Shown one piece after another: positions 1 through 15,655 of a DNA stretch of 64,000 nucleotides (positions within the stretch are counted from its first letter, which is position 1; each line of letters starts with the position of its first letter). Below the pieces are notes generated by a model, which had not been told where the DNA came from, made no database searches, and saw only the letters and a program-made list of their open reading frames with translations. Both the position numbers and the translations under genes were made by a program. The stretch covers positions 1 through 64,000 of IMG/VR virus record IMGVR_UViG_3300033121_002101; one strand, written 5' to 3'. The stretch comes from a virus (taxonomy: Duplodnaviria > Caudoviricetes).

Positions 1-224
1 CGGGTGGCGTTGAGGGTGGCGTCGCGGGTGGCGTTGCGGGTGGCGACGTCGGTGGCGGAGTAGGTGGCGTCGCGGGTGGCGTTGAGGGTGGCGGAGTAGG
101 TGGCGTCGCGGGTGGCGTTGCGGGTGGCGTTGCGGGTGGCGGAGTAGGTGGCGTCGCGGGTGGCGTTGCGGGTGGCGTTGCGGGTGGCGTTGCGGGTGGC
201 GGAGTAGGTGGCGTCGCGGGTGGC
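1..224 (-). repeat. Coding 12-bp tandem array, 18 full units plus 1 partial, GCCACC+NNNNNN
   Basis: Units GCCACCCGCGAC, GCCACCTACTCC, GCCACCCGCAAC, GCCACCCTCAAC and GCCACCGACGTC encode ATRD/ATYS/ATRN/ATLN/ATDV. The array is truncated by the window edge. Confidence 0.97.
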
Positions 225-509
225 GGATTTGGAAGCACTGCCTCCGCGCCACTTCCAAATCGCGTCAGTAAAGCTCCCCGCAACCGCCATCACCAGCGGG
301 CTCGGGACCACGATCACGTGCGGCTCGTCGAGATTGCTTGCGTAGTACAGGCCGCGGATCGCCTCGCCGATCGCCTGTTGGTCGATCGGCTCGGTGCGAA
401 GGATGCGGCCGATCCAGAGCTTTGCGTGTTCGTCGAGCTTGATGCGCTCCTCGTCTGTGATGCCTCCGGCGGCGAAGTCGTGGCGGCGGATGATCTTGGG
501 CGTCGTCAT
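1..509 (-). CDS. DUF6745-like protein with ATxx tetrapeptide repeats (partial, runs off window start; missing from ORF track)
   Basis: ATG at 509 after an AAGGAG SD. Translates MTTPKIIRRHDFAAGGITDEERIKLDEHAKLWIGRILRTEPIDQQAIGEAIRGLYYASNLDEPHVIVVPSPLVMA... then (ATxx)n. The N-terminus (T.P.D...A...I..LY....L..P..I.V.SP) resembles DUF6745 proteins. The C-terminal domain lies outside the window. Confidence 0.75.
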   Translation of the reverse strand, partial: MTTPKIIRRHDFAAGGITDEERIKLDEHAKLWIGRILRTEPIDQQAIGEAIRGLYYASNLDEPHVIVVPSPLVMAVAGSFTDAIWKWRGGSASKSATRDATYSATRNATRNATRNATRDATYSATRNATRNATRDATYSATLNATRDATYSATDVATRNATRDATLNAT

Positions 510-510
510 G

Positions 511-681
511 TCAATTCTCCTTCACGGTCATCAGGGCTGCGCGCATGTCACGCTTCATCTCCTCACGCACACTCCTTGTCGCTGCGTCGACAATCTCGCG
601 CGTAGCCTTTTCGATGGCGTCGCGGGTAGCGACGCGGGTGACGTCGTACACGGCAGAGGTTGCGTCGTCGGTTGCAGCCAC
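511..681 (-). CDS. Small helical protein with degenerate ATxx repeats (56 aa)
   Basis: GTG at 681 after GGAGG, sits tightly between its neighbours. MAATDDATSAVYDVTRVATRDAIEKATREIVDAATR... Confidence 0.65.
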   Translation of the reverse strand: MAATDDATSAVYDVTRVATRDAIEKATREIVDAATRSVREEMKRDMRAALMTVKEN

Positions 682-683
682 TG

Positions 684-1031
684 TCAGTCCTCCACCCGGC
701 GCCAGCCATCGGGCGTGTACTCTCGCTGCCGGCGGATCTCCCACACGACCTCGCCACCGTCTGCCAGTAGCTCGAGCGTCTCGTGGGTATCTGTCGAGCG
801 ACGGTGCTCGACAACGACCGGCGCTGACGCCACGAGGTACGCGACGAACGGATCCGGCGTGGTGTAGTAGGTGCCGCCGAGCGCCACGTGGTGATGGCCC
901 GTCTCGCTGTGGGCCACGATGTGCTCGGGCGCATCCTTGCGAGTGGCGCCTGGCGGCAGCGCGGCGACGCGGCGGAACATGACGTCGCCCTGGAATGCCG
1001 GGGTGCCGTCGGGGGTGATGGTCTTGGTCAC
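684..1031 (-). CDS. Conserved His-rich hypothetical protein, typical DUF6745 partner
   Basis: Motifs QGDV, HSETGHHH, EH..TH and RRQREYTP..WRRVED. GGAG SD upstream. Confidence 0.8.
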   Translation of the reverse strand: MTKTITPDGTPAFQGDVMFRRVAALPPGATRKDAPEHIVAHSETGHHHVALGGTYYTTPDPFVAYLVASAPVVVEHRRSTDTHETLELLADGGEVVWEIRRQREYTPDGWRRVED

Positions 1032-1104
1032 TGTTGTTCTCCGTTGGTGGTTAAATTACGAAGTCTTTGATTGAGCATTTTAAATTTCCTTATTTTTAAT
1101 AGTT

Positions 1105-1569
1105 TCAAATATGTTCATGAATAGCAAGCAGTGTACCATCTGGCAAAAAAGTTGCTTCTACGATTTCGCCATCTGTTGGAAATTTCATTTGACTGCGCGG
1201 GTGATAAGATGTAGAGTGAAATGCAAATTGACTATTCTCTCTATCTTCAATAACACCCCAACCAGTTTCATTGTTAAACGAATTAACAACCCAAAGCTTT
1301 TTATTTTTGTTTTTCATACTAAGTTCAGCATTAAGTGTTTTTAGTTGTTCAACATTGTTTAGCAAGTTGTTAATCTGATCAACAGATAAAACAAATCTTG
1401 CACAGTACGGATTTGGATTATGAGTCACAAATTCAATGTCTGGATTAAAACTTGTAGCTTTATATCCAGTAAAAAGCTCTTCAACTTTGCTTCCCAATTC
1501 TATCCATGCATTTGCGTATACATCTTCATCATATGTCATTTCGCCACTTGGAAGCATTCTTTGTCTCAT
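1105..1569 (-). CDS. Hypothetical protein with C-terminal cold-shock-like OB domain
   Basis: VVNSFNNETGWGVI..FAFHSTSY..DGEIVEATF resembles CSD RNP1/RNP2 motifs. Confidence 0.55.
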   Translation of the reverse strand: MRQRMLPSGEMTYDEDVYANAWIELGSKVEELFTGYKATSFNPDIEFVTHNPNPYCARFVLSVDQINNLLNNVEQLKTLNAELSMKNKNKKLWVVNSFNNETGWGVIEDRENSQFAFHSTSYHPRSQMKFPTDGEIVEATFLPDGTLLAIHEHI

Positions 1570-1703
1570 AACACACCAATGTTTTTTGCAAATTTTATAT
1601 TTTGCATTATAAAATATAATACATTTTAAACAACAAAAACTGAGAGCTTATAAGAAAGCATTACAGTTTGCCGCGAGAATTTGTTTGAACAGTGCTCATA
1701 AAC

Positions 1704-1949
1704 TCACTCTACGATTTCACCAGACACTGCTGGAGGTTCATCTCTTACAGTTATTGGTAGCTTTAATACAGACAGTGCAATATCTTTCCAAGCATCTGGT
1801 AAATCATCACGAATTGGTTCTAAACGATCACAATCATTTTTTGGAACAATTGAAAGCATTCTGCATGAACATTTTGGGCATTGATATCTAGAAAATTTTG
1901 GATCATCAGACCATCCGCAGTTCATACAAATTTCAATTACTTTAATCAT
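1704..1949 (-). CDS. Zn-ribbon hypothetical protein
   Basis: CxxC...CxxC, overlaps its upstream gene. Confidence 0.6.
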   Translation of the reverse strand: MIKVIEICMNCGWSDDPKFSRYQCPKCSCRMLSIVPKNDCDRLEPIRDDLPDAWKDIALSVLKLPITVRDEPPAVSGEIVE

Positions 1950-2233
1950 TGATTTTCCAATTCTCTAACTTGACGTTCTGCGCGTTCAATTATCTGATTA
2001 ATTTCACTGATCATATCAAGTCTATTTGGAATTTCTTCTAATGTTATATCATAATACATTCGAAGACTTTCAAATTTACTTTTTATCTGAACAATCTGAA
2101 TTGGATAATCTTTTAATTTTTCCAATGCGGCGAAAACAATTACATTCCAAGATGCTGGAACGCTTGCTCCGCAATATACGTTATTGCATATTTTCGGATA
2201 TAGTTCTTCTATTATCTCTTCAAAGCTTTTCAT
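1946..2233 (-). CDS. Conserved phage hypothetical protein
   Basis: QIKSKFESLRMYY matches the common phage QxKEKFGxLRxY family. Confidence 0.7.
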   Translation of the reverse strand: MKSFEEIIEELYPKICNNVYCGASVPASWNVIVFAALEKLKDYPIQIVQIKSKFESLRMYYDITLEEIPNRLDMISEINQIIERAERQVRELENQ

Positions 2234-4854: not shown

Positions 4855-4858
4855 TACG

Positions 4859-4931
<73 letters not shown>

Positions 4932-4943
4932 TTAAACTTTTTG

Positions 4944-5030
4944 CGGAAGGCATGGGACTCGAACCCATAACGCTTTTTTACGACGCACTTGTTTAGCAAA
5001 CAAGCCCCTCATCCATGCCGGATACCTTCC
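4944..5030 (-). tRNA. tRNA-Ser(GCT)
   Basis: GGAAGGT/GCCTTCC-G acceptor, CTTGT-TTGCTAA-ACAAG anticodon arm, long variable arm, ATGGG-TTCGAGT-CCCAT T arm. Confidence 0.9.
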
Positions 5031-5057
5031 AATTATAACACGTTATAAATTACCTTA

Positions 5058-5390
5058 TTACTCAGCGATTCCACGCAACACTTCTTTTGTTGATTGCGAA
5101 ACAGTTATTTTAGCAAGTCTATATGTGTTATATTTTCCGTCATTTGCTAAAAATTTTTCAACTAAATCAAAACAACTTATTGCTGCTTCTTTACTAAGAA
5201 AGCCATAAATTCCATAAAGCTGCCAACAAGCTCCGCTGGCTATTTGCTCCCATTTTTCTGGATAAAGCCGTTTAGAGTATCCATCACCTGAACATGGTAA
5301 ATCAAAGCTGCTCCATTGCTCTCCAACTTGGCGTTGCCATTGATAAATCTCTACATTATCACAATCTTTACGAAGAAAGCTCATTTGCAA
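5058..5390 (-). CDS. Hypothetical protein
   Basis: ORF track. Confidence 0.6.
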   Translation of the reverse strand: MQMSFLRKDCDNVEIYQWQRQVGEQWSSFDLPCSGDGYSKRLYPEKWEQIASGACWQLYGIYGFLSKEAAISCFDLVEKFLANDGKYNTYRLAKITVSQSTKEVLRGIAE

Positions 5391-6010
5391 TCCTTAAATC
5401 TATTTTCGTGTGGTATAAAAATACAAAATTTAACTTTTCTATTATCTTCATCACAAACAATTGATAAGCTTTCATTGATCTCAGCATATGCAATTGCTTT
5501 CACTTTGTTTTTTTTATATTCACTTTCAGTAATAAATTTTGGAATCAAATTATTGTTTTCAATAACACTGAAAATAAATTTGTGTCTATTATGTGCTTCA
5601 GTTAAGGCTTTTACTTCATTTTCTAAAAGAAGAATTTTTACTTCATTTTCTAAAAGAAGAATTTTTGCTTCTTTTTCTAAAAGCTCTTGTTCAAGTTTTG
5701 AAATTTGCAATTCAAATTCATCAATAAATGAATACGAGCCAGCAGTCTTTTTTTCTCTAAAAACTATCGCATATTCAAATTCAGTGTCATCAAAATCATA
5801 AGAAACATTAAGAAAAATTGAATCAATTTCTATTTCATCAGCAAAATCATCAATTTGTTTTTGTGTTACATACACGTAAGAATGCATACGTGATTTATTA
5901 TTCTTGCTTTCTTTTGTTCTATCTTTAAGATAGCAATTGTCGCAAGGTGCAACTGAAACCAGCAACAATACACCTTTTCCAGGTGCTCCACAAGAAGGGT
6001 AATCAAACAT
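5381..6010 (-). CDS. Hypothetical coiled-coil protein
   Basis: ORF containing a KILLLENEV duplication. Confidence 0.6.
   Translation of the reverse strand: MFDYPSCGAPGKGVLLLVSVAPCDNCYLKDRTKESKNNKSRMHSYVYVTQKQIDDFADEIEIDSIFLNVSYDFDDTEFEYAIVFREKKTAGSYSFIDEFELQISKLEQELLEKEAKILLLENEVKILLLENEVKALTEAHNRHKFIFSVIENNNLIPKFITESEYKKNKVKAIAYAEINESLSIVCDEDNRKVKFCIFIPHENRFKDCK
5609..5683. repeat. 27-bp in-frame tandem repeat, about 2.8 copies
   Basis: ttttacttcattttctaaaagaagaat twice, then a degenerate partial third copy. Confidence 0.9.
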
Positions 6011-6034
6011 ATTACATTACTCCAAATTTATTCG

Positions 6035-6105
6035 TTCGGGAGCAAGGACTCGAACCCTGATAGTTTGATCCAAAGTCAAACGTCCTGCCATTGAACGACT
6101 CCCGA
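6035..6105 (-). tRNA. tRNA-Gln(TTG)
   Basis: TCGGGAG/CTCCCGA acceptor, TTTGA-CTTTGGA-TCAAA anticodon arm, CAGGG-TTCGAGT-CCTTG T arm. TATAAT lies 10 nt upstream. Confidence 0.92.
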
Positions 6106-10159: not shown

Positions 10160-11209
10160 TCAGCGATTTTCGATAATCTTCAGAACAAGATTGTATTTTC
10201 CGCCAGATATCTTAGACGCATTTACAATCTTTAAACACTTAGAAGCATAGTTTCTAAGTTTATCAGTCGATTGACCCAAAAGCTCATCAAACGACATTGC
10301 ATGGATTTTTCTAAACTGCTTTGCAATTTTTCTAGCGGGCTGAGTTTGCTTTTTGTCTTCAACTTTGTAAACGCCGTGTAATGTACTGTTTGCTTCTCTA
10401 CTAACTTGGCAAAAGTCATCGTCGAGGTCGTCATCAAAGTCGTCATCATAATACTCATCTTCTTCAACGTCAACGTCTTCGTAGCTGTCAAAATAATGAG
10501 ACGGAAGAACTTCAGAGTAAATCCCAACAACTTTGTATTTGCATACTCTCATCTTTTGGTGAGAGTAATCATTCGGTACGCTTACAACAAATTCTGGATC
10601 TACTTCACAGATAAGCATTTTTTTATTGCCTGAACCGAATGAACTTGCATACTCAAGTGAACCCACATGGAAACCAAAATGGCATGGAGTGTTCGGATCA
10701 TCAGAAACGAGATTTCTTTCCATCTCGTGAACAGAGCCAACAGTATTTAAAACAGTGCCAGAGTGGTGATCTAAAAAGTCACCACGTACAGACTTATACG
10801 CAAGAATATTTCCATCTTTGTTCACTGGAATTCCAGCATGACTCATAAACGGAAAAAGCTGTTCAACTGATCTAGAAGATGGATTGCGCATCAACTTTTT
10901 CCAGAAATTTAAAAATGGCTCTGGCGACTGACCATTTCTTGCTGCTTCAATTATCTTATCAGATAAAGATTGCGGCAGCTCACGGTTTTTCATGAAAACT
11001 TTGCCGCTGACAAGCTTAAACTCGCCACTGCTCCAAGACGACATGAACGCATCACTTTCCAATGACTGTTCAATTATTGCATCATCATTTAGCAGCAATG
11101 CACTTCTAAGCACAGAAAAGTTTAAATCATTCGGTGTAAAGCATAACATTTTACCATTGTGAAAAATTGTAATAGAATCGTTTGTTATTGTATAGACATA
11201 TTGAGGCAT
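10160..11209 (-). CDS. rIIB: rIIB-like protein
   Basis: PFLNFWKKLMRNPS..SVEQLFPF, DGNILAYKSVR, C..GFHVGSLEYA and KMRVCKYKVV. Lies downstream of rIIA. Confidence 0.88.
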   Translation of the reverse strand: MPQYVYTITNDSITIFHNGKMLCFTPNDLNFSVLRSALLLNDDAIIEQSLESDAFMSSWSSGEFKLVSGKVFMKNRELPQSLSDKIIEAARNGQSPEPFLNFWKKLMRNPSSRSVEQLFPFMSHAGIPVNKDGNILAYKSVRGDFLDHHSGTVLNTVGSVHEMERNLVSDDPNTPCHFGFHVGSLEYASSFGSGNKKMLICEVDPEFVVSVPNDYSHQKMRVCKYKVVGIYSEVLPSHYFDSYEDVDVEEDEYYDDDFDDDLDDDFCQVSREANSTLHGVYKVEDKKQTQPARKIAKQFRKIHAMSFDELLGQSTDKLRNYASKCLKIVNASKISGGKYNLVLKIIENR

Positions 11210-11235: not shown

Positions 11236-13434
11236 TCAAGCTGTTAGTTTGTCTGTTAAATTATTAAGTCGCTGTTCTAAAAGTTGTTCGTTATGCTTAT
11301 CGATTATTTTAACATAATCTACATATTCACAACGATGTTCACCAATTAGCGCATACATGTTTTTAAACAATAAAGGATACTTGCTATTGATTTGATCAAT
11401 TTCAGAATGGTTGTCAGTTAATATCAATTTATAGTTTTCATTATAATTCAATATTTTTCTAAATGTTTTTTTTACATTTTGTGAACTGTACTCTTTGTTG
11501 ATCACTGTAACTGAATCAATATATTTTTCACAAAAACGAGATAAAATATGGTCAGCACCCAACGCACACTTTACTGATTCAAAAGCAGTCTTTGAAAATA
11601 AATTAACACCGTAGTCTGTAGCTGCTTGATCATTTGCAAATTCACTAATCTTAAGAATACTGTTGTAACTACTATTTGACAGTAATTCATCAACAAAAGT
11701 TTTCAGCCAAACTTCGTATCTAATACCCACTCTTTTTGTGCTATTTCCTATGTGATCTTTTTTAATTTTGTATCCAAATATTCTTGGAGCTTTCTTCCCA
11801 ATCTTGTCACAAATGGCTCTAACTGTTAAAATAGTTTCTTCTAAGATAGAGTCTTGCGTTTCGAAATTACAAATTTCGACATACACATCATTTTTTGTAA
11901 TACTTCTATCAGAAAGCTCCCAATTATTTGATCTAACTGTAGTTTCAACAAATTTAATATTTTCTTTCAAAGAAAATTCTTTTTTGCCAGCAAGAACTGA
12001 TTTTTCTTTCTTTTCTGGCAAAAGGCTTTCATCAATTTTAAGAGATGATGTAAAAACTATTTCTATGCCCTCAGCTTTGTTTATTTCAACATGACTGAGA
12101 ATATCTTTGTAAACGCTAAGATATTCTGATTTGTTTATTGGCGTTGCAATATATGTTATATTATCTTTGAAATTGTGAGTGTAAAATTTCAAAGCTTTTT
12201 TAGAATCATGTATTACAATTTTTGTATCTTTATGAACATTAATTGAATTGGTTTTATAGCTGTGTACAATAGAATCTCTTCTTCTTCTTGAAGAATATGA
12301 ATACTCTGCAAATGAGTATCCAACACTTTTACCGTTAAAAAGGTCATTTGGGAATAATTTGACATGAGAATCTAAAAAAGATTTATCCATGTTTTTATCA
12401 ACAATTGAAAAACTAAAACCGGAATTTTTCAATGAAGATGCGAACACTCTTTTTTCCCAATTTGTCTTTGCTTTTGAATTAATCAATTCATCGACAAATT
12501 TTGAATACTGTGAATGCAACTCGCAAAATTTGTCGATGATTGCATTTTTAGTTTTGTCATTATATTCTAAATCTTCTCTTGAAGCATTAAAGTTAATGTC
12601 ACCAATTTCAAACTTTAAATAACCAGAAGAGTAACCAACAAAATCTGGAAATTTAACATTTGATTTGTTTATCCTGTATGGAATAGAACCCATCAGGGCA
12701 TACCATTCTTCAGAAGAATTATAGTTATAACTATGATTTACTGCTTTATACGTTTTATCATTTACAATACCAGCAGGAAGATCTGCTAATATATTTTTTT
12801 CTCGAAAAGAAATGTTACCAATGTTAAAATTGGGTTTAGTCATTACAGTAGAAAAGAACAAAACAATCTTGTCATAAAATTGTTTAACATCATGCTTTTT
12901 TACTGGAATTTTAATTTCTAAACCAGTTTCATTTTTATCTTCTAAATCTGATTCGTTTAGAAGTGCAATTGTTCCATGTTGAGATTCATCAATGAAAGCA
13001 GAATACGTTCTAATCTTTCCTTGATTTTTTGAAATTACAATAAAAGAATCTGAATAACAAAATGCTGATTTTGAACCAATGCCAAGCATTCCCACGTAGT
13101 CATCTGAGTCTCTCTTGGTGCTTGCTCCATACTGAGTGTATATCATTACAACTTCATTATGCGAGAGCCCTGGCCCACAATCTGTCACACTAAAATACAA
13201 TTCTGAGTCAGTTGGAATGTGAATAGTAATTGGTTCATTTTCTTTTCCAACTGACTTATTCGCATCAAATGCATTGGCTGAATACTCTCTGATAACAGCC
13301 ATGATCTTGTCTGAATAAATTGTATTGCGCAAAATATTAATGATATGTGCTGAATTCTCAGCAGAGATACCAAACTTTGTTGCATCAATAGCACCACCCA
13401 GCGCAGAATTATTCTTTTGATTTTGTGGTATCAT
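11236..13434 (-). CDS. rIIA: rIIA-like protein (GHKL/HATPase N-terminus)
   Basis: IYSDKIMAVIREYSANAFDA, DCGPGL, YGASTK, GMLGIGSKSAFCY and SREDLEY. Confidence 0.9.
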   Translation of the reverse strand: MIPQNQKNNSALGGAIDATKFGISAENSAHIINILRNTIYSDKIMAVIREYSANAFDANKSVGKENEPITIHIPTDSELYFSVTDCGPGLSHNEVVMIYTQYGASTKRDSDDYVGMLGIGSKSAFCYSDSFIVISKNQGKIRTYSAFIDESQHGTIALLNESDLEDKNETGLEIKIPVKKHDVKQFYDKIVLFFSTVMTKPNFNIGNISFREKNILADLPAGIVNDKTYKAVNHSYNYNSSEEWYALMGSIPYRINKSNVKFPDFVGYSSGYLKFEIGDINFNASREDLEYNDKTKNAIIDKFCELHSQYSKFVDELINSKAKTNWEKRVFASSLKNSGFSFSIVDKNMDKSFLDSHVKLFPNDLFNGKSVGYSFAEYSYSSRRRRDSIVHSYKTNSINVHKDTKIVIHDSKKALKFYTHNFKDNITYIATPINKSEYLSVYKDILSHVEINKAEGIEIVFTSSLKIDESLLPEKKEKSVLAGKKEFSLKENIKFVETTVRSNNWELSDRSITKNDVYVEICNFETQDSILEETILTVRAICDKIGKKAPRIFGYKIKKDHIGNSTKRVGIRYEVWLKTFVDELLSNSSYNSILKISEFANDQAATDYGVNLFSKTAFESVKCALGADHILSRFCEKYIDSVTVINKEYSSQNVKKTFRKILNYNENYKLILTDNHSEIDQINSKYPLLFKNMYALIGEHRCEYVDYVKIIDKHNEQLLEQRLNNLTDKLTA

Positions 13435-13463
13435 TTCTTTCTTTCTTTCTTGTTATAAAGAAG

Positions 13464-13615
13464 TGGGTATACTGGGATTCGAACCCAGATCCAACGCTTG
13501 TCGAAAGCGTTAAATGTATTGTGATCTCAAACCGTCGAATGAGAAATTTAATACACCTGTTAAACACATTCTGCAGAAGCATTTAACAAAGCATTAAGCC
13601 ACATGCTTCATACCC
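13464..13615 (-). ncRNA. tRNA-like structured RNA, 152 nt, with three internal hairpins
   Basis: GGGTATG/TATACCC-A acceptor, AAGCAT-GTGGCTTA-ATGCTT D-like arm and perfect CTGGG-TTCGAAT-CCCAG T arm. The interior folds into three stems. Confidence 0.75.
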
Positions 13616-13640
13616 GAAGCGTGCAATGCACGCATTACAA

Positions 13641-14795
13641 TCAAGCTTTCTTCAAAACAGCAGTACCTTCAGTGAGTTGTCTAGTGTAAGATGTAGACTG
13701 AATAAACACAGAGAATTCTCCAAGGTTACCAGGTGTAAGCTTAATATCACCCTTTGTGTTTGAAATGTTTAGAAGGCTCTTTGCAGAATCCCACCCTTCA
13801 TAAAACTTACCAGTCTTTTTATCTTGAACAATAATCTTCTTATACGGTTGGACAGTTTCCTTTTTCGTCAACTGATAGTATAAAGATCCTTTCTCAAAAC
13901 TCTTCCAATTCTTTTTCGCAAAATTTCTAATTTCACGATCTTTCCTTGAAAGATTGTCTGGCACTCTAACAACTTCAACACTCTTTGTAACATCATTCAA
14001 ATTTGTTGCAAGATTCTTAGCAACTGAATTTGCATTCTTATTGCCTAGGTCGACATAGAAATTATTACTACTCATTACACCAGCAGATCTAGATGTAGTG
14101 TATGAGCTAGCAGATAATGTTGCTGCTTTCGCATAACTCTGTACACCGTCGAACGTTTGTTCCCACGCTCTAACATTACCGTGCGGAATTCCAAGATTCT
14201 GGACATCTGTAACGCTTTGCACCGGACAGTTTGCAACAATTGTCATACGACCACTTAAAGAAATATTTTTAATCTTTTCCTTAATAGAAAAGTGAGTTTC
14301 AACCCTAGATTGATTCTCTTGACCGTCTGTAATGACAACAATAAGGTAAGCCAAATCCTTATTCGTCATCAAGCCAAGTGCAGCTGTATCTAAAGCTACT
14401 CCCATTGCATCGTATAGCGCAGTCATACCACATGTATATGACGACGGAATTTTAAAGTTTTTTACATCTGAAAAGCCACTAAATTTTTCAACGGTACTAC
14501 CGAAGAATATTGTACCCACATTATATTTTGTATTTAGCGGAGCATTTCTCATTACTTCAAGTTGAGATTCAATTGCATTATTCATTGGCGTCTGTAGTCC
14601 ACACATTGAATCACTCTTGTCGACTACGAAGATTACGTTTGTAACCATCGTTTCAGTTGAATCATCAACTAAGAAAAGCAGATGACCTTTTTCATCCTTT
14701 TCTGTTTTAACTTTTCCAGATGCTGCCCACTTCCTTGCCGTATCTGGGTGTATGTTTTTTAACTTCACAAACTCACCAGTTTTTAATTTCTTCAT
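13641..14795 (-). CDS. HTH - vWA domain protein with conserved C-terminal domain
   Basis: N-terminal MerR/excisionase-like HTH (IHPDTARKWAASGKV), MIDAS DKSDS, TALYDA, ITDGQEN, and C-terminal YYQL...FIQSTSYTRQL. Confidence 0.85.
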   Translation of the reverse strand: MKKLKTGEFVKLKNIHPDTARKWAASGKVKTEKDEKGHLLFLVDDSTETMVTNVIFVVDKSDSMCGLQTPMNNAIESQLEVMRNAPLNTKYNVGTIFFGSTVEKFSGFSDVKNFKIPSSYTCGMTALYDAMGVALDTAALGLMTNKDLAYLIVVITDGQENQSRVETHFSIKEKIKNISLSGRMTIVANCPVQSVTDVQNLGIPHGNVRAWEQTFDGVQSYAKAATLSASSYTTSRSAGVMSSNNFYVDLGNKNANSVAKNLATNLNDVTKSVEVVRVPDNLSRKDREIRNFAKKNWKSFEKGSLYYQLTKKETVQPYKKIIVQDKKTGKFYEGWDSAKSLLNISNTKGDIKLTPGNLGEFSVFIQSTSYTRQLTEGTAVLKKA

Positions 14796-14848: not shown

Positions 14849-15391
14849 TTAGTGTCTCTTGCCAGTAACATAAAAACTCCATCCTTTTGAGTTAGTCATT
14901 TTTATAATGCGACCAGCGTATCTCCAAGCTTTTCCTTTAAATGTAGTCGCTTTTCCACCGCCAGCATAACCAGTAATTGCGCAACGAATATTATCTACAC
15001 CATGACCATTGTCTTCGCAATATTTAAACCACTCATGTAGGTGTAATGATGCACCTTTATATTGCGCGCGCACGTCATAAACAATTTTCTTACAGCTTTT
15101 AACCGTAGTCGCTTTTAATTGCGTTGAGCCACAAAAGTATGGACCGTGTAGGGTATGAATTTTGTTTATGTTGCTGTTTACTCTTTTGTTAGTGACATTG
15201 TCTACACCATTTACAGATTCATGCAAATATCTAGATTCCTGATCAGCTTGCGCGAGCAACTGAAATGCTTTAACTTTTTCTGTCTCTGCTTCCATTGCAT
15301 ATGACACATGATTCAATGGTGCACCACTCATATATGAGAGCACAACAAGTTTAATTATATAAGGATGCATTTTGCAATAATAATACAACAC
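14849..15391 (-). CDS. Lytic transglycosylase (SLT)-like protein
   Basis: LLAQADQESRY (catalytic E-S), GSTQL (GxxQ), AITGYAGG (AYNxG-like) and YAGRII. Confidence 0.65.
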   Translation of the reverse strand: MLYYYCKMHPYIIKLVVLSYMSGAPLNHVSYAMEAETEKVKAFQLLAQADQESRYLHESVNGVDNVTNKRVNSNINKIHTLHGPYFCGSTQLKATTVKSCKKIVYDVRAQYKGASLHLHEWFKYCEDNGHGVDNIRCAITGYAGGGKATTFKGKAWRYAGRIIKMTNSKGWSFYVTGKRH

Positions 15392-15460
15392 AATTATACA
15401 TTGTAAGAGTGCAACAGTGTTACATTGTTTTCATTTTACACTTGTATTAAAATATTAAAA

Positions 15461-15655
15461 ATGGATGAAAATACAAATATCGAAAACATGCTAGCGCAAC
15501 AAATTATTGTTTTTCTCGGAGATTATGACGAAGAGACAATAATAAAAACAATTACAATATTGGCATCAGCACTTATTGTAACAAATACAGTTACTCATGA
15601 AGAACTTTCTGAATCAATACGACAAACAGTCTTAACGTACAAAGAAAAAAATTGA
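15461..15655 (+). CDS. Hypothetical protein
   Basis: First gene after the strand switch, ATG at 15461. Confidence 0.55.
   Translation: MDENTNIENMLAQQIIVFLGDYDEETIIKTITILASALIVTNTVTHEELSESIRQTVLTYKEKN

Follow-up and report, generated by a model that had tools for sequence, protein, structure and literature searches.

What kind of gene lies in the short interval between the gene for a vWA-domain protein and rIIA in an uncultured, T4-like phage? The phage is represented by a 196,531-bp IMG/VR virus record (IMGVR_UViG_3300033121_002101; ~96% complete), and the stretch of DNA analyzed here, referred to below as the window, is the first 64 kb of that record. Minus-strand positions 13464 to 13615 of the window, between the two protein genes, make up an element of 152 nucleotides (nt). 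It is a phage RNA gene in which the outer frame of a transfer RNA (tRNA) is kept, with three extra hairpins in place of the codon-reading arm. Our best explanation, held with moderate confidence, is that the element is the gene for a non-decoding, tRNA-framed stable RNA that would be cut from an early transcript spanning the vWA gene and rIIA, and that it is of the kind represented by species 1 RNA (rnaC) of phage T4 and RNA1 of phage T5. The original prediction for this locus, a “new tRNA-mimic” noncoding RNA, stands in that the element is a tRNA-framed, non-decoding RNA gene; it does not stand as to a new kind, since T4 rnaC and T5 RNA1 are already annotated.

A tRNA frame with three additional hairpins

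Positions in the RNA are numbered from its 5′ end (p = 13616 minus the window coordinate), such that p1 is at 13615 and p152, the discriminator A, is at 13464. The 5′ strand of the acceptor stem, GGGUAUG (p1-7; 13609 to 13615), pairs at 7/7 positions with the 3′ strand, UAUACCC (p145-151; 13465 to 13471). At the DNA level these strands read GGGTATG and TATACCC, the latter followed by the A at p152, after which CCA is not encoded, the trailer being C-T-T. The stem carries G3-C70, and the reported absence of the G3:U70 pair of transfer-messenger RNA (tmRNA) is thereby borne out. The D-like arm (13589 to 13608) has a 6-bp stem, AAGCAU/AUGCUU (AAGCAT/ATGCTT in DNA), and an 8-nt loop, GUGGCUUA (GTGGCTTA in DNA), that contains GG; positions 8 and 9 of the RNA are AA, where UA is usual. 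The T arm, CUGGG-UUCGAAU-CCCAG (13472 to 13488), is perfect.

Three hairpins, likewise on the minus strand, lie between the D-like arm and the T arm. Hairpin 1 (p28-59; 13557 to 13588) occupies the position of the anticodon arm and has 13 layers, including one U.U and three G.U; its loop, CUGCAGA, sits within the palindrome UUCUGCAGAA (in DNA, CTGCAGA within TTCTGCAGAA). Hairpin 2 (p60-102; 13514 to 13556) is built in two parts, an outer stem, GUGUAUU/AAUACAU, and an inner stem, UCUCA/UGAGA, capped by the loop UUCGACGGUU (TTCGACGGTT in DNA). Hairpin 3, AACGCUU-UCGAC-AAGCGUU (p105-123; 13493 to 13511), has 7 bp and the loop UCGAC, and a 4-nt linker separates it from the T arm. The acceptor, the D-like stem, the three hairpins, and the T arm had all been listed in the original prediction, together with the three occurrences of TTCGA in the element and a reading frame for ASAECV (GCT..TAA, p36-56) within the paired strands of hairpin 1, and each of them is present on the minus strand as described there.

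The minimum-free-energy fold of the whole is a five-way junction of -51.9 kcal/mol (z = -5.1), and 0/200 shuffled sequences were equally stable. Base-pair probabilities are at least 0.9 for most pairs in every helix, with terminal pairs alone falling as low as 0.57, and an alternative 8-bp long-range helix (p29-36/p100-107) has a pair probability of 0. The tRNA frame is also beyond chance: with the T arm and the 3′ acceptor strand held fixed and the upstream 212 nt dinucleotide-shuffled, a 7/7 acceptor partner arose in 1.5% of trials, and in 0.025% that partner was also succeeded by a D-like arm. Across the 196-kb genome the strict T-arm motif has 28 occurrences, of which 23 fall within tRNAs called by ARAGORN; of the remaining five outside them, four are in tRNA look-alikes.

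The element has the complete top half of a tRNA, i.e., 12 bp of acceptor stem plus T arm, a T loop of the form UUCRANY, and GG in the D loop. An anticodon arm, with a 5-bp stem, a 7-nt loop, U33, a purine at position 37, and the right distance to both the D and T arms, is missing. Hairpin 1 has a loop that looks canonical for an anticodon but 13 layers beneath it; hairpin 3 is suitably spaced from the T arm but not from the D arm, carries C37, and has a loop that is one base shorter in three strains. Because the arm at the anticodon position has 13 layers and the arm that is rightly spaced from the T arm varies in loop length between strains, the RNA cannot read codons. Its layout can be described in two equivalent ways: (i) as a tRNA body into which two hairpins are inserted where the D and anticodon arms meet or (ii) as a tRNA with a 13-layer anticodon arm and a variable region that holds two hairpins.

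No call was made at the element by ARAGORN in its default and tmRNA modes or by Rfam at gathering thresholds; on this check, which the original prediction had proposed, neither a full-length tRNA nor a tmRNA was returned. In E-value mode, the Rfam tRNA model (RF00005) reaches 28.9 bits, below the cutoff of 29, and it covers only 13464-13558, placing an insert of 30 nt within the D loop. The intron mode of ARAGORN reports a “tRNA-Arg(tct)” whose intron is 56 nt, whose variable arm is long, and whose D arm is poor. When each block of 30-99 nt was removed in turn and ARAGORN was re-run, removal of p26-104 (hairpins 1 and 2) left a 73-74-nt cloverleaf, called “tRNA-Ser(cga).” Hairpin 3 is read as the “anticodon arm,” with the loop UUCGACA, by both the Rfam and the ARAGORN deletion models.

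These results also dispose of a further suggestion in the original prediction, that the element is a minimal tmRNA derivative tagging proteins with ASAECV. Although the open frame at p36-56 would suit such a tag, it lies inside the stem of hairpin 1 in paired strands, the fold has no pseudoknots, the acceptor has G3-C70, and neither the tmRNA mode of ARAGORN nor Rfam detects a tmRNA; the idea is effectively refuted, and membership of the tmRNA family was rejected.

Strain variants and the search for relatives

Across 12 studies, with samples from wastewater, sludge, freshwater, groundwater, and an estuary, 20 public runs contain the stretch, no RNA run being listed among them, and variants were read from contigs of four of these runs. 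One contig (X20), from a library labelled RNA-Seq and flagged “probably DNA,” spans 13527-13750 and is uninformative on processing. No joints were found in the contigs examined. The Logan contig L008, 97.4% identical over 9 kb, has 0 changes in the 152 nt of the element, where ~4 would be expected at 2.6% divergence (P ~0.02). In contig X19, the element has 3 substitutions in 152 nt (2.0%) versus 9 in ~232 third-codon positions (3.9%) of the flanking genes, a lower density that modestly suggests constraint and is not a covariation test.

The individual changes can be followed in the fold. A64G converts an A-U pair of hairpin 2 to G.U, and U102C converts a G.U pair of the same hairpin to G-C; the stem is kept with either. 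U145A (13471) loses G7.U145 and gains U127-A145, by which the acceptor/T stack goes from 7+5 to 6+6 and is still 12 bp. U122A, together with 1-nt deletions at p112 and p124, remodels hairpin 3, which in other strains has 5 bp and the loop CGAC. The refolded variants have the same junction, at about -51 kcal/mol, and no variant was seen in the D arm, hairpin 1, or the T loop of the four strains. Since two separate 1-nt deletions fall inside the element, a coding region is excluded, and the loop of hairpin 3, which departs from 7 nt in other strains, is likewise excluded as a decoding anticodon loop. The evidence supports the conclusion that the element is neither an ordinary tRNA, nor a coding region, nor a chance fold.

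The only L008 difference close to the element is a 4-nt indel in the AAGA repeat before the rIIA start (window 13434-13463; L008:4119-4150), at which strains differ. In L008, this indel joins a spurious open reading frame (ORF) through the RNA gene in frame with rIIA, which is called there at 780 amino acids (aa), versus 732.

The same variants bear on whether the element is an intron-containing tRNA from which a nuclease and the phage RNA ligase would splice out hairpins 1 and 2 (or a stretch of 56 nt), leaving a working tRNA with the anticodon CGA or UCU. The original prediction had found no simple intron whose removal restores a cloverleaf; the p26-104 deletion, which gives ARAGORN tRNA-Ser(cga), overturns that statement, and the 73-74-nt product and the Arg(tct) call with a 56-nt intron are what splicing would lead one to look for. 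An Rnl1-type RNA ligase is encoded by the phage, and tRNA genes of KVP40, nt-1, F86, and BUCT-ZZ01 carry a conserved 40-50-nt insertion in the anticodon region while scoring 52-55 bits. We nonetheless regard splicing as quite improbable. Three other strains have a hairpin 3 loop that is one base shorter, with A106-U122 changed to A.A, and a 7-nt decoding loop is not kept in them. The spliced product would have C at position 37, and a long variable arm would be required of a Ser tRNA. In the Arg(tct) model, the anticodon stem is disrupted by U102C, a change that strengthens hairpin 2; the D and anticodon stems of that model are 6 nt apart, and its D arm is poor. The long-range helix p29-36/p100-107 is not populated in the predicted ensemble, the insert falls short of the size of a group I intron, and two Arg(tct) genes are already present in the genome. 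On balance, the variants argue against real splicing.

No homologue was found beyond the ~97%-identical strains. In 50,697 phage records, blastn revealed no meaningful match to the element or to its 2.2-kb surroundings, three IMG/VR scans for sequence patterns (hairpin 3 plus T arm; T arm plus acceptor; hairpin 1 frame) gave 0 matches, and a single-protein scan of IMG/VR with rIIA found no close relative. The nearest rIIA proteins are ~35% identical, and the nearest vWA proteins are 41-44% identical. The homologues near rIIA that the original prediction had hoped to collect did not materialize: the RNA is in none of 74 distant rIIA loci, and only near-identical strains have it. Some of these 74 loci have ordinary tRNAs upstream, and in several an ordinary tRNA is just upstream of rIIA (Leu(taa) in L034; Arg(tct) in L043, L047, L048, and L053), a location that fits an origin of the element from a tRNA gene at that position. 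Against its own genome, blastn-short of the element and of its insert returned no second copy and no significant antisense target, and full-text literature searches turned up no paper that describes the RNA or short insertions within tRNA genes of phages. Conservation, another of the checks originally proposed, is thus seen among strains, in which the fold is kept and from one of which (L008) the element differs at no position, and was not found beyond near-identical strains.

Could the element be a decaying tRNA pseudogene, a former tRNA gene upstream of rIIA that received a ~78-nt insertion between its D and anticodon arms and is now functionless or an accidental processing site? The ordinary tRNA genes just upstream of rIIA in several distant relatives would agree with such a history, as would the cloverleaf restored by deletion of p26-104, an Rfam tRNA score of 28.9 bits against a cutoff of 29, the non-consensus bases A8, G14, and C37, the lineage-specific occurrence of the element, and the tolerance of hairpin 3 for indels. 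Decay is harder to reconcile with seven helices that are all intact and an inserted part that is itself strongly folded, with changes that are fewer than at third-codon positions and absent relative to L008, with the preservation of the helices and of the 12-bp stack by the changes that are observed, and with an insert that is not a repeat found elsewhere in the genome. We consider a pseudogene unlikely.

Several observations do weigh against a gene for a stable RNA. The bases at positions 8, 14, and 37 are off the tRNA consensus, as expected of a decaying tRNA gene too. Substitutions number only four, too few for statistics; two of the variant changes weaken terminal pairs; and the remodelling of hairpin 3 by indels indicates that constraint on this hairpin is loose. 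The homologues found are strains ~97% identical, too close for a true covariation test. Contigs with homologues of the vWA gene (L087-L089; 41-44% identity, one of them also with a 35% rIIA) have no tRNA-like RNA adjoining it, and the three extra hairpins would be superfluous for a mere processing signal. As an aside, the 688 nt past the vWA homologue in one of these contigs (L088:3655-4343) are without a called gene and resemble an uncalled ORF, not an RNA gene.

Operon setting, predicted processing, and look-alikes in the same genome

The gene upstream of the element (13641 to 14795, minus strand) encodes the 384-aa vWA-domain protein, homologues of which carry HTH_17. Downstream are rIIA (11236 to 13434, minus strand; 732 aa) and, next after it, rIIB (10160-11209). 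The RNA is separated from its neighbors by 25 nt on the vWA gene side and by 29 nt on the rIIA side, the latter spacer (13435 to 13463, minus strand) containing the AAGA repeat with its 4-nt strain indel ahead of the rIIA start. Both spacers were scanned, and neither has a sigma-70-like promoter or a terminator, while promoter-like sites are found at 15380-15566, ahead of the first gene of the leftward block; for these reasons, co-transcription of the RNA with the flanking genes is the simplest reading. The RNA, whose fold is kept across strains, is placed inside an operon and has no signals of its own. The genome as a whole has rIIA, rIIB, and 25 tRNA genes called by ARAGORN, the nearest of which (4858-6105) are 7 kb from the RNA. 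G+C content is 32-37% over most of the window, with 51% at window positions 1-2000.

The inverted repeat GCGTGCA/TGCACGC that had been noted just 5′ of the RNA is real. It lies at 13619-13633 on the minus strand, 8 nt past the vWA stop codon and 3 nt ahead of p1, and would fold as a 6-bp hairpin, GCGUGC-AUU-GCACGC, that has no U tract and received no terminator call; its sole variant among the strains is in the loop, at 13626. This repeat, the palindrome of hairpin 1 (TTCTGCAGAA), and TCGA raise the alternative that the locus acts at the DNA level, binding the HTH-vWA protein or another factor, with the likeness to tRNA being secondary. These are perfect DNA palindromes (GCGTGCA-T-TGCACGC in the case of the repeat), and the HTH_17 domain in homologues of the upstream gene product would suit a DNA-binding role. 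Operator palindromes leave unexplained, however, the perfect UUCGAAU T arm, the closing 7-bp acceptor, and the C74 signature described below, and vWA homologues in relatives lack such an element beside them. An operator function of this sort appears highly improbable.

For a stable RNA of the T4 and T5 kind, a path to the mature product can be proposed. The element would be transcribed within a leftward early operon composed of a 180-aa gene, the vWA gene, the RNA, rIIA, and rIIB. Its 12-bp acceptor/T-arm stack, canonical T loop, and D-loop GG would make it a substrate for tRNA processing enzymes, with RNase P predicted to cut 5′ of G1 (13615/13616) and a 3′ endonuclease of the RNase Z/BN type predicted to cut after A152 (13464), followed by addition of CCA by a host enzyme. 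The products would be (i) a stable RNA of ~155 nt, (ii) a vWA messenger RNA (mRNA) that ends in the GCGUGC-AUU-GCACGC hairpin, and (iii) an rIIA-rIIB mRNA with a 29-nt leader. The hairpin at 13619-13633 may then serve as a protective 3′ end for the upstream mRNA after RNase P cleavage. Because the RNA is inside an operon, its excision would necessarily cut an mRNA. The RNase P/Z processing signal suggested in the original prediction would in this way form part of our proposal. Our best guess is that the tRNA-like top half engages tRNA-binding proteins and that the three extra arms carry the specific function.

The 3′ end of the element agrees with that of tRNA genes in the same genome. All 25 (25/25) have C directly after the discriminator and never CCA, the next base being G, T, or A, and the element (A-C-U-U) and other look-alikes carry the same pattern of discriminator, C74, and a base other than C. 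A CCA-adding enzyme of the PolyA_pol family was not found in the phage genome, and CCA would therefore come from the host. T4 tRNA precursors without CCA require RNase BN/Z and the host CCA-adding enzyme, and by analogy the element may follow this RNase BN/Z and host CCA route.

T-arm scanning and Rfam show at least four further aberrant tRNA look-alikes in the genome. Three are packed together on the plus strand at 100784-101010, outside the window (L005:285-511), just before tRNA-Cys and downstream of a Pth2 gene (99836-100192); as tRNAs they reach 32-39 bits, and ARAGORN in default mode is silent on them. The first (100784-100855) has an 8-nt loop, AAUUUAGA; the second (100857-100923) has a shortened anticodon region and a non-canonical T loop, with an Rfam tRNA score of 35.2 bits; and the third (100935-101010) has a 9-nt loop. 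The fourth, also outside the window, is a 106-nt tRNA-like RNA at 171820-171925 on the minus strand (L006:221-326), in which the D arm is of the Leu type (GGAAUUGGUA), the “anticodon” arm runs to ~12 layers, and one more arm is present; the T5 RNA1 model matches it at 29 bits (E ~8e-6).

If the top half of the element does bind tRNA-binding proteins, the element would belong to this wider set of look-alikes in the phage. A bolder proposal is that the set is a deliberate one, in which at least five anticodon-defective tRNA mimics (the element, the three by the Pth2 gene at 100.8-101.0 kb, and the Leu-type RNA at 171.8 kb) act as decoys or sponges for host tRNA-directed defenses or tRNA sensors. 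We offer it as a tentative and rather unlikely reading; a decoy for anticodon nucleases or tRNA-sensing defenses had been among the roles suggested in the original prediction. Were it true, the RNAs would undergo processing and CCA addition, might be charged by synthetases for which the anticodon does not matter, and would nevertheless be kept from the ribosome; the three extra arms of the element, with self-complementary UCGA or CUGCAG in each loop, would form a specific surface for docking or dimerization; and excision of the element would in addition free rIIA-rIIB expression from that of the genes upstream.

Comparison with known tRNA-like RNAs

Three known classes of RNA resemble the element in setting or in part of its structure. 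YrlA (RF02553), which acts with Ro60/Rsr, is likewise a noncoding RNA with a tRNA-like module that adjoins a gene for a vWA protein. RF02553 has no match on the element, however, no TROVE domain was found in the neighboring protein or in the whole genome, and the ends of the element form a plain acceptor stem in place of a Ro-binding stem. Elements that punctuate longer transcripts with a tRNA shape (mitochondrial tRNA punctuation, plant t-elements, and the mascRNA of MALAT1) are cut by RNase P and RNase Z, which sets the ends of neighboring RNAs, and the same is predicted for the element. Such punctuation elements are minimal, in contrast to the ~95 nt of well-folded arms that the element adds and that a cutting signal does not need.

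The third class consists of T4-like, oversized “pseudo-tRNAs” of 112-124 nt in KVP40-type vibriophages (two in KVP40 are annotated tRNA-Pseudo-4 and -5) and the cyanophage BUCT-ZZ01. As in the element, a structured insertion follows the D arm and precedes the 3′ half of the anticodon arm; in BUCT-ZZ01 the oversized tRNAs are directly upstream of a homologue of the vWA gene. Two differences set them apart: their bodies score as good tRNAs (52-55 bits), as opposed to 28.9 bits over part of the length of the element, and the inserted part is the same conserved module in all of them, absent from the element, in which YNCNGCAA comes after a 6-bp hairpin that covaries and has a GNNA loop. No paper on this module was found in the literature. 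Depending on the tRNA body, the module sits 5′ or 3′ of the loop (KVP40, nt-1, F86, and BUCT-ZZ01). The oversized tRNAs occur in clusters of 2-4 genes (L086:1108-1982 in KVP40, L085:1099-1747 in nt-1, and L084:1129-1751 in F86), which in the three vibriophages lie ~1 kb downstream of a gp57B-like “RNA ligase” gene; the cluster in Synechococcus phage BUCT-ZZ01 is at L004:2685-2931. A functional tie between the RNA and the vWA gene was considered and rejected, the BUCT-ZZ01 arrangement being taken as coincidence or synteny: oversized tRNAs adjoin the vWA homologue in that phage but not in Cr30, Myrna, or three closer metagenomic relatives.

The closest parallels in design come from T5 and T4. 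To our knowledge, tRNA-like stable RNAs of these phages (T4 species 1 RNA and T5 RNA1) have been known since the 1970s, none with an assigned function. RNA1 of T5 (rna1, T5s03; 144 nt, NC_005859 30501-30644) is annotated as a “tRNA-like stable RNA with unknown functions.” It shares with the element a tRNA frame of acceptor, D arm, and T arm, a long structured arm that replaces the anticodon arm, and an additional hairpin ahead of the T arm; its family covaries. The D arm of RNA1 is of the tRNA-Leu type (GGAAUYGGUA), in contrast to AAGCAU-GUGGCUUA-AUGCUU in the element. A covariance model of six RNA1 homologues matched neither the element nor any other part of the window at E up to 10; in the phage it matches tRNA-Leu (41 bits) and the RNA at 171820-171925 (29 bits). 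The element is unrelated in sequence to T5 RNA1, and its kind is already known from T4 and T5.

Species 1 RNA of T4 (rnaC; 139 nt, NC_000866 70908-71046) is annotated as a small stable RNA of unknown function. The consensus of five rnaC homologues covaries and has a 7-layer acceptor-like stem stacked on the T arm, a conserved hairpin with a CGUCAA loop directly 5′ of the T arm, and a long hairpin, variable among homologues, that replaces the D arm. In size, in the 7-layer acceptor-like stem stacked on the T arm, and in the T arm itself (CCGGG-UUCGAAU-CCCGG in rnaC and CUGGG-UUCGAAU-CCCAG in the element), the two RNAs are similar to near-identical. In both, the T arm is preceded at 1-4 nt by a hairpin whose loop is of the CGNCAA type, and extra long hairpins stand in for the decoding part; neither is callable as a tRNA. 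Unlike the element, rnaC has a long hairpin where a D arm would be and an acceptor stem with two U.U layers, and it resides inside a tRNA cluster, whereas the element is alone between two protein genes. The covariance model of the five rnaC homologues gave a single, weak match in 82 kb, to window 13463-13535 (19 bits, E ~0.005), which covers only the 3′ 73 nt of the element, its 3′ half. In 482 kb of other phage loci nothing besides T4 itself scored above 11.3 bits; a KVP40 locus (75 nt), however, reaches 16.3 bits, and a whole-genome search with the model gave no match. The element and rnaC share a design, but their likeness in the covariance search is weak, and homology is no more than a possibility.

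Relative to these known RNAs, what differs here is (i) the five-way junction architecture with a non-Leu frame and (ii) a setting alone within an early protein-coding operon, just upstream of rIIA. Together with the other look-alikes, the Pth2 gene, and the Rnl1 ligase of the same phage, the element suggests that RNAs of this kind are a recurrent, modular tool of large phages, not debris.

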